Shown piece after piece: positions 13,801-63,897 of a stretch of DNA of 64,000 nt. The DNA lies in NCBI GenBank assembly GCA_051362555.1, contig CM120641.1, forward strand, positions 12,462,001 to 12,526,000, given 5' to 3'. The notes under the pieces were generated by a model, which saw nothing but the letters and a program-made list of their open reading frames with translations, was not told where the DNA came from and did no database searches. Each line of letters begins with the position of its first letter. The first letter of the stretch is position 1. Source of the DNA: Lingula anatina. Lineage: Eukaryota > Animalia > Brachiopoda. A program made the position numbers and the translations under genes.

Positions 13801-16800
13801 TTAGCAGTTTGAAAAACAATAATGTAATTTGATGGAAATCAAAGTTCATAATTCAGTGTTCATGTACAGAGTTTCCTGCGTTTGCCCTTAGATTGAGGGT
13901 CTATTGAAATTTGTTCTCTGTAACACCTGCTCACATTTTCTGTTTCCAGTGTAAAACTATATTCTAGACAGAGAGACCATTTCTGGGTAAAAAAGTGTGC
14001 GTGCCAAGACCCCAAGACTGAGTGCTGTTTTTTTAACCTGCATCACAGAGTGATTCCTTCTCTCCCCATCACCATCATTGAACTGTATCTACTTAATATA
14101 ATTTCTTCCATATTTTACAGTAAATATATCCTCATTTATATATATATATTTTCAGTTTCCAGTAAATTGGGAGAATGATCTATGTTGACTTCACATGCAA
14201 AACTGATTTTTTTTTCAAATTTGTGTTTTTGGTAATAGATTAAAGTGGTGTTTTTCAGTAGTGGAAATGAGCTTAGTTTATGTCAGAAAGTAATTTTTTT
14301 TACTTAATGTTTCTAATAAATCTTGAGAAAAGTGGAATATTAGAAAAAGTGAGGTGTTTGAAATTTATGAGTCAATGCCATAGCCATAGAGCAACTTAAA
14401 ACAACTTAGCTATGTAGTCATAACTATGCAACTGCCAGGTTACTGAGGTATGATTATCTTATCAAAATCTTCAGTCATCACTGGATCTTATCTATTGGGG
14501 GAGAGGAGGAGGGGTGTCTTATTCTCTAACCTTTCCGTGATTATAGGTGTTTTGATTTTCCAATGGTAAATCTGAGGTGAGACCAACTTGGTGGTTGGTC
14601 ACCATGACATGTACTGAGGGTTGGGGGCCTCAAAGTTTTATGAAGGTCATTGATTTAGTGGTAAATTAATTATTTGGTGAAACAGACAAACAAACAAAAT
14701 TCTCCTGTGGTTGGGGGGGGGGGGGGGGGGGGGAGTGGAAGGGTGAAGTTGTTTTTGTATTTGATTGTAAAGTATAGGCTATGTACTAGTAAGCTGGGAA
14801 GTGATAGATGTCGTGAATAAATACTGTTTGATAGGAAATGAAATGCAAAGGCCTTTTGACTTTTGTGTTAAGCACATTGAAATCACTACTTAACTTTGGT
14901 TTAATGTATTACTATCAGAGATTTAGTAGTTATTTGCTTTTTACTGAAAGTGAGATAAAACGTGGCTGTACTTAACCTTTGTTGAACTATAAAATTTAAT
15001 GGCCACATTGGCTTATGAAACACAAATAAAAATGAGTTGATATGTGCCTTATAGAAACTAAAGTGCACTTAAAAGCATCTTTCCAAAATGATGATATGCC
15101 ATGCAATGAAATGAATTACTTTAAAACTTTCAAGTTGTTGAGTTCAATTGGAACATGGATAAAGTTACCAACTGCTTCATTCAAGCTAGATATTGAAAGA
15201 GATTTGACTTGATTTCAACTGTATAGGTTAAAAGTTACTAAATGATTTGAGGTATTACTTATTTCTAATTTAATAGCCATGTGCCTGTCTGTTGAATCAT
15301 AGCATCCATTTATCCTAATGTACATGAACAAGATGGTATGCAGCTCTCACATGTTAAAAATTCACTTTGCTCATGACAAAATCATGAAAGAGTGTGCTGT
15401 TTTGATGAACTTTCTGATTGTATTACTTAAAGAGCAGCTTGATTAGATTGTTTTGAATGATTCAAAACATGGAAAAGTTTTCCCTAAGCTTTGGATTTAA
15501 CCAAAGTATAATTTGACTTTGTTTTGCTCTTTTTATGCAAAATCTGTAAATATGCTCAAACTGTTTTACCCAAAGTGCCCTTTGACTCCATTGTGCTCTG
15601 TTACTTTTTCAGCGCGAGTCATGGAGGCAGCGCAGATAGTGGATATTCTAAGGAAGAAAATTGCCATTTTGTCTGGTAAGTAAAAAGAAGTTTTCGTGAT
15701 TAATTTTGTTATATGATCACAATACCTTAATTTTTAGTAGAAATTAGACATTTATGCATTTATGACTTAGCAGTGGCATTAAACACTTCATATGCACTTG
15801 GATACATGGTGGGTATACATATACTTGTGCATTAATCTCTCCACTCAAAGAAAATGACAAAAATCTAAGCACATTTTCTCTACATTTTCCCACGCATTTT
15901 GGAAATAACATAAATTACTGAATAATTTGCAAAAAAGCAGTGGTAAAATGTGTATGGCATCTGGCAATGCTGGTACCAATGAACAGAATTACACGTAGTT
16001 AAGTTGTGTAGCTAGAGATTTTTTTCATGTCAGCTGTTATTTTATGTAAAAATCTAAATTTTATGTATTAATTTACAAAAATGGGTCAAACATGATCTTT
16101 AAATGAATATCTAGGTGAGAACAAAGACTATAAATCTTTAGGGCATTCTCTCATTCAAATTTACAATCCAAGATCTTTTATTAAGTGGCATTCCTACATT
16201 CATTAAGCATAATAAAGTGTCAGGCAACAGGTTGAAATTATGGTCCCTGTGTCTCTAATTACACATCTGCTTACTCAGGCGCTGTGGCCTCAATGCTAGG
16301 TGACAGTGTAGCACTTGTCATATCACTTTGATATCAGTGTTGTCCACACTAATTAACAGGGGGACAGTCTAGATCAGAGCTGAGATGAAAATGGTGCTCA
16401 AGGCAAATCAACCGTGAAAATTCCCCCTTTGGTCACATCTTGTACATCTGTTAACTACTTGCACCTTTTCATATGTGCAATTTATTTAATGACTTTATGA
16501 TAACATGTCTGGGATATATGGGGTAGTACTAACACCCGCTAATTTAGCCAAATGCTAAAACTGGCTGAAACTGGCTAAACAGAATATGGTTGATTTGATT
16601 TGTTTTAGTCAAATTTAAAGCATATGGAAGAAAAAGTGATGAAAAAATGCTAGTGCTACCCCAGCATGTGTGTGTGTGTGTGTGTGTGTGTGTGTGTGTG
16701 TGTGTGTGTGTGTGTGTGTGTGGTAATACAAGACTGACACCTCTGGTGCTTGCAGTGAATGAGCACCAACCAAGGGATTGTTTGAATGGGCCTTGATGAT

Positions 16801-63897: not shown

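Follow-up and report, generated by a model that had tools for sequence, protein, structure and literature searches.

SESTD1, CCDC141 and TTN have been traced to a single ancestral gene, named "connectitin", that derived from Trio/Kalirin and is described as whole in cnidarians and placozoans and as three genes in bilaterians (Hanashima et al. 2025, PMC12198301). The same study likens the three gene starts to the three promoters of Kalirin and cites transcripts spanning CCDC141-TTN and zormin-sls (PMC12198301); a vertebrate transcript spanning CCDC141-TTN has also been reported (PMC12657953, partial text). Alternative first exons and internal promoters are known for Trio and Kalirin (PMC9823006, PMC12198301; partial text), and in Drosophila zormin and sallimus (sls) share transcripts (PMC12198301, PMC7039190; partial text). 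The connectitin study leaves the break point unmapped, and Lingula is not among its species, supplements included. In the literature searched, where subscription journals are little covered, we found neither a description of living bilaterians that retain the junction nor one of a break point lying within a single spectrin helix, and nothing on this locus in work on Lingula titin or muscle.

Here we analyze a 64,000-nt stretch of the Lingula anatina genome (hereafter the window; features in Table 1). The order and domains of the locus are those of vertebrate SESTD1, CCDC141 and TTN, which are however separate genes. As in connectitin, a SEC14 domain of the SESTD1 clade precedes many spectrin repeats, here SESTD1-type and then CCDC141-type, followed by an I-set array that leads toward titin; in contrast, the GEF and kinase parts of the cnidarian gene are not in the window. 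Drosophila zormin/sallimus similarly carries spectrin repeats and several Ig domains upstream of a titin-like part, whereas the SEC14 protein is encoded by a separate upstream gene, CG15822 (PMC12198301). We interpret the locus as the 5′ part of a brachiopod connectitin locus with one open frame and likely three kinds of product. Judged from sequence comparison, this single-unit interpretation is probable, and the locus is likely a living example of the proposed single ancestral SESTD1-CCDC141-titin gene.

A sequence-only reading of the same DNA had proposed an ancestral bilaterian transcription unit that vertebrates split into three genes. The notion of one ancestral gene that later split is supported, but this headline evolutionary idea is already in print as connectitin, with an origin placed earlier than bilaterians (PMC12198301). 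Nor is the split specific to vertebrates, because CG15822 is a separate gene in Drosophila as well, and the same arrangement leaves a further claim, that insect sls/zormin has Sec14 isoforms, without backing (PMC12198301). With the broad claim published and fused models present in NCBI under misleading names, the gain made here is one of refinement.

Table 1. Features of the proposed Lingula connectitin locus, in window coordinates
Feature	Position	Strand	Observations
Upstream coding exon	8328..10868	+	ATG at 8363; phase-1 donor; low complexity over ~835 codons, including tandem repeats of 63 nt
Sec14/CRAL-TRIO (SecSR type) domain, 5 exons	15613..21393	+	Structure match; SESTD1 clade
SESTD1-type spectrin repeats, 9 exons	22010..26374	+	PF24915; last exon closes with the opening portion of a helix, at a phase-0 donor
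Read-through tail	26375..26485	+	26 codons and a stop, then six AATAAA within an (AAAT)n run; a SESTD1 form may end here on its own
CCDC141/zormin-type first coding exon (leader)	34557..34661	+	ATG and 35 codons, with a phase-0 donor; lies in the 16.4-kb intron
CCDC141-type spectrin rod, 18 exons	42819..57511	+	PF25075, PF00435; CCDC141-like matches; shared acceptor at 42819
Tandem duplicate exons	53119-53244, 53664-53792	+	Likely mutually exclusive; homologs carry one copy or the other
Six whole I-set Ig domains	57187..63208	+	PF07679; first Ig begins at the end of exon 57187-57511
Linker and start of seventh Ig	63536..63897	+	Likely titin Z1 counterpart; gene continues past window end

One Open Frame from a SESTD1-Type Head to the Ig Array

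Built by script from the letters of positions 11000-64000, the exon model for 15613-63897 comprises 41 exons, all with AG acceptors and GT donors, and encodes 2662 aa with no stop, provided that exon 40 ends at 63208. This bears out the earlier claim of a stop-free frame running from a SESTD1 part through a CCDC141 rod into Ig domains. The proposed chain of junctions 56756-57187-57835 holds as well: 56756-57187 and 57511-57835 are both in phase, and the alignment of P0049, a 3098-aa protein of a relative encoded on a contig of 9510 nt, spans the two (model residues 744-2662, 50% identity). The whole spectrin rod measures ~1,700 aa, with SESTD1-type repeats (PF24915) first and CCDC141-type repeats (PF25075, PF00435) after them.

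The SESTD1 module had been placed at 15613-26374. Its phase-0 GT donor at 26374 stands, but coding sequence already lies upstream of 15613, in an exon that the earlier account overlooked (8363-10868). A homolog search gave a 100% match for exon 25092-25406 in XP_023933441.1 of Lingula anatina, a partial NCBI model that stops at 42941. Its residues 797-1580 correspond to model residues 1-784, the 26374-42819 junction included, and its residues 1-795 map to exon 8363-10868 at 94%. Since the NCBI model begins at 8363, position 15613 is an internal acceptor; the acceptor at 8328 was read off the sequence. No Pfam domain matched the upstream exon. Its 63-nt coding repeat occupies 8711-9390 in 10.8 copies, and the NCBI Lingula protein has fewer, so copy number is variable.

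Orthology to SESTD1 and CCDC141

The locus had been assigned to SESTD1 and CCDC141 rather than to Trio/Kalirin, and this assignment is borne out. A phylogeny built on the Sec14 domain plus the first repeats (37 rows: the window plus 36 proteins chosen from 200 fetched, cnidarian connectitin not among them) groups the window with 19 proteins of SESTD1 type and separates it from Trio/Kalirin and DBS (support 100/99). The SESTD1 part is 42-50% identical to SESTD1-like proteins vs. 22-28% to Trio/Kalirin, and PF24915 is recovered in P0019 with 149 bits. For the rod, the named matches are the CCDC141-like proteins of Pomacea and Liolophura (63-66%). In Atlas searches, chordate CCDC141 ranks first (0.93) for a query with the leader-type N-terminus; the CCDC141 comparison covered mollusc CCDC141-like proteins by alignment and chordate CCDC141 by Atlas rank.

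We consider it scarcely credible that the gene is instead Trio/Kalirin or another spectrin-family paralogue, although several observations could be taken that way. Trio and Kalirin (the SecSR RhoGEFs) also combine a SecSR-type Sec14 with spectrin repeats, and P0019 residues 797-957 strongly match the Kalirin Sec14 structure 7UR2 (E 7.6e-32), with no Pfam CRAL_TRIO_2 match at E<=0.001. An Atlas query with one rod exon returns a mixture in which CCDC141 ranks only seventh, behind SESTD1 and Kalirin-like clusters. Amphioxus and crinoid models even bear Trio/Kalirin names; but XP_066263903.1 (P0017, "kalirin-like") and XP_033111497.1 (P0054, "triple functional domain protein-like") are SESTD1-CCDC141 fusions without a RhoGEF domain, and P0018, named MYLK, is a CCDC141-type form. 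Trio and Kalirin form a paralogous clade whose DH-PH domains directly follow the spectrin repeats, whereas at the Lingula locus the rod leads into I-set Ig domains. RhoGEF is absent from the exons scanned, and PF00621 is absent from the collinear relatives P0033 and P0049. Two proteins in the published SEC14 alignment (PMC12198301), XP_006823022.1 and XP_035660906.1, are close relatives of the window, and the latter, the amphioxus "SESTD1" of that study, is itself fused to a CCDC141 part.

A Probable Junction Inside One Spectrin Helix

The SESTD1- and CCDC141-type parts meet across the longest intron of the locus, 16.4 kb between 26374 and 42819. In leave-one-out matrix scoring, the phase-0 GT donor of exon 26206-26374 reaches 8.6 and ranks 15th among the 41 donors; 3 of the 1106 GT sites in the intron attain this value, and 42819 is an ordinary phase-0 acceptor (7.3 vs. 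a median of 8.1). Exon 42819 is matched by 21/200 fetched proteins, of which 8 have a SESTD1 part upstream, 11 have the leader described below and 2 begin at or within the exon. The 8 fused proteins (Lingula 2, octopus 2, amphioxus 3, crinoid 1) are all genome-based gene models, drawn from only four lineages and including some duplicates; P0160, P0084 and P0015, a Lottia protein with the SESTD1 and CCDC141 parts in reverse order, were left out of this count. All 8 join directly in the register of the window or through inserts of their own. Amphioxus XP_078700697.1 aligns in one segment to model residues 1-2420 and has Sec14, spectrin and I-set domains, and in one amphioxus species all three forms are annotated about this junction (P0017, P0018, P0036).

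Splicing 26374 to 42819 had been claimed to complete a spectrin helix. Within the helix, the junction falls where 11 other phase-0 introns of the rod also fall, and in the amphioxus fused stretch AlphaFold predicts a single helix over it (residues 65-131, pLDDT 82-88) that matches spectrin repeats, from an alignment in which two hemichordate rows are misaligned past the junction. The Pfam spectrin match in the amphioxus fused models begins 6 residues before the junction. For Lingula itself the claim is less secure: the half-helix ranks among the best 2.2% of rod windows (the end of the leader being average), but its score of 1.3 sits at the bottom of the range for true helix junctions (1.4-13.6). 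The octopus and cuttlefish stubs are no better than background (-7.3 and -8.5). Spacing across the junction is collinear between Lingula and amphioxus; in molluscs, hemichordates and the crinoid, an additional 100-300 residues precede it. Another animal locus (L006:12707) retains a similar half-helix and GT donor.

Open phase-0 candidates for hidden exons lie at 35512-35586 and 40371-40424 in the 16.4-kb intron, and none was found in the 5.4-kb intron. A metagenome scan for the junction yielded seven loci, all intron-bearing and none reaching the acceptor exon. When the junction region of P0019 served as query, 2 of 30 candidates matched, neither a new fusion, so that neither search aimed at the junction yielded a contig-derived fused protein.

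A Likely Second Start and a Possible Early End

The flanks of the 16.4-kb intron also admit a reading as two adjacent genes. A SESTD1-like gene would end past 26374 by read-through and polyadenylation, and a CCDC141/zormin-titin gene would start at 34557; the 26374 donor would be a leftover, and the fused database models would reflect rare read-through splicing or annotation. The length of the intron and the same split in human and Drosophila (PMC12198301) agree with such an arrangement, which we nevertheless regard as unlikely.

One element in its favor is the leader exon, overlooked in the sequence-only reading, which is complete, conserved and equipped with an ATG, and likely marks a second start for the CCDC141 part. 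The leader is 57-77% identical to the N-termini of the 11 proteins that continue into the equivalent of exon 42819, as expected of a CCDC141/zormin-type gene with its own first exon and conserved leader ahead of spectrin repeats and Ig domains. Its donor scores 7.6. An ATG-bearing exon inside the intron gives acceptor 42819 two possible upstream partners and implies an internal promoter. Every contig-derived protein with a full N-terminus at exon 42819 bears the leader, among them P0049, which consists of leader, rod and 13 Ig. By these comparisons the link from leader through rod to Ig domains is better supported than the SESTD1-CCDC141 junction. We also considered the leader as an internal cassette exon and ruled this out for want of a usable acceptor (the nearest in-frame AG scores -20.4).

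At the other end, reading through the 26374 donor meets a stop after 26 codons and then six overlapping AATAAA at 26460-26485, so that the SESTD1 part can also end alone. Cuttlefish-like and amphioxus proteins have the same read-through ending; of the cuttlefish-like SESTD1 proteins assembled from runs, 12/12 (98 contigs) terminate in this way at this very donor. These contigs are too short for introns and are therefore likely transcripts. Alignment of the fish SESTD1 XP_077393010.1 stops at model residue 707, and the half-helix is missing from that protein; a D. busckii protein, the CG15822 counterpart, aligns only to residue 665 before a tail of its own.

Against two separate genes, retention of a donor and half-helix at one spot in brachiopod, amphioxus, crinoid, octopus and L006 would need selection. 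The collinear spacing of Lingula and amphioxus, the clean predicted fold of the amphioxus fused stretch and the Pfam match that starts ahead of the junction all argue in the same direction, and the AATAAA run may be a plain (AAAT)n microsatellite. We therefore favor one unit with several products, a reading that accommodates both the CCDC141-type start exon and the possible early end.

In the AlphaFold model of the leader form, residues 24-53 form three beta strands (pLDDT under 50). Positions 42819-42860 are thus modeled as beta together with the leader and as helix in the fused form, and this possibly makes them a two-fold segment.

Ig Domains and the Probable Titin Boundary

Titin-type Ig domains had been described after the rod, at least seven in number. 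An I-set array does follow the rod, but it comprises six whole domains and the first ~27 residues of a seventh, and only this last partial domain matches titin Z1. PF07679 was found in 5/5 scanned Ig exons of 57187..63208 (5/6 counting all Ig-region exons scanned), and titin is the top PDB match of Ig1. The seventh-Ig exon matches only titin Z1Z2 entries, and weakly (E 2e-5 to 0.07), while its counterpart in P0049 (residues 1867-2056) matches Z1Z2 at E 6.6e-46; from this relative, the seventh Ig is likely the titin Z1 counterpart. Because the Z1 match is confined to it, Ig1-6 likely belong to the CCDC141/zormin part, and titin proper would likely start only at the window edge. Vertebrate CCDC141, in contrast, has one Ig where the Lingula locus has six before the Z1-like domain.

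How far junction-spanning transcripts extend bears on a third arrangement, a SESTD1-CCDC141 fusion that ends in the rod or first Ig beside a separate leader-driven giant titin. Of the fused models, 7/8 stop before any Ig and the Ig-reaching one (P0033) ends in collapsed repeats; in the fly, a single locus gives zormin and kettin as separate isoforms (PMC7039190, partial text). Yet the fused models stop where the assembly or annotation breaks off, the exon table contains no terminal exon between 42819 and 63897, and cnidarian connectitin extends from SEC14 to kinase (PMC12198301), so we judge this arrangement improbable.

Proposed Products and Evolution of the Locus

The frame, splice sites and leader are read directly from the window, and from them we infer which forms are expressed and in what proportions. 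Within the single-unit reading, a long form would begin at the upstream start and join 26374 to 42819, so that a single spectrin helix is completed across the junction. A CCDC141/zormin-type form, likely the main muscle form, would arise from an internal promoter, splicing exon 34557-34661 to acceptor 42819 and continuing into the Ig chain. A short SESTD1 form would read through the 26374 donor and end within the intron.

By analogy with mammalian SESTD1, CCDC141 and fly Zormin, the long form would combine a predicted lipid-binding Sec14 head, a spectrin rod and a titin-like Ig chain, and so may link membrane and sarcomere. Mammalian SESTD1 binds phosphoinositides (PMC3734623, partial text), and Kalirin Sec14 shows weak lysolipid binding tuned by alternative first exons (PMC9823006, partial text). 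CCDC141 binds titin and nesprin-1 and is located at costameres (PMC12657953, partial text), and fly Zormin is found in the I-band and H-zone (PMC7039190, partial text). A junction confirmed by RNA may help account for the binding of CCDC141 to titin and its costamere location.

With the leader and a read-through end already present, loss of one splice donor would suffice to make SESTD1 and CCDC141 independent genes; two proteins that stop short of the junction, a fish SESTD1 and fly CG15822, fit fission by this route. We see about an even chance that connectitin is unsplit in many living bilaterians, with brachiopods, amphioxus, crinoids and octopus still splicing the junction inside one helix and some transcripts running into titin, that the bilaterian ancestor had both the leader and the read-through end, and that vertebrates and arthropods each lost one donor. 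If RNA confirms the junction, the published view of three bilaterian genes would be corrected. A confirmed junction would also give the exact base and a simple route of fission (internal promoter, intronic end, loss of one donor), as well as living animals in which a membrane-binding titin head could be tested.

Additional Features of the Window and Its Homologs

Duplicate exons in the rod, a pair that the sequence-only reading overlooked, are likely mutually exclusive. Among 14 homologs inspected, 8 have one copy followed by the next exon and 2 end at or within a copy, making 10/14 interpretable; 3/14 are without the search motif and 1/14 (P0003) is unmatched. Isoforms X1 and X2 of the chiton Liolophura carry one duplicate-exon type each.

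Models from the flatworm Macrostomum (P0160) and the leech Helobdella (P0084) join SESTD1-like spectrin repeats to Ig domains and are divergent and partly mis-joined.

The 16.4-kb intron contains a young LTR retroelement at 29380-32432, bounded by two ~384-nt LTRs (TG...CA) that are identical over the first 369 nt compared and flanked by a 5-bp target duplication. Inside it are tandem 80-nt repeats (30056-30439) and, at 30773-31699, a gag-like ORF that matches SCAN, with no pol-length ORF seen in the element. Within the Sec14 region, a 64-nt unit corresponding to the 3′ end of exon 19615-19729 is arrayed ~4.5 times in tandem at 19700-19977, and the first copies include the donor of that exon as well. 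Near the start of the window, two ORFs on the minus strand at 398-1746 (258 and 138 codons, stop to stop) are transposon-like by eye.
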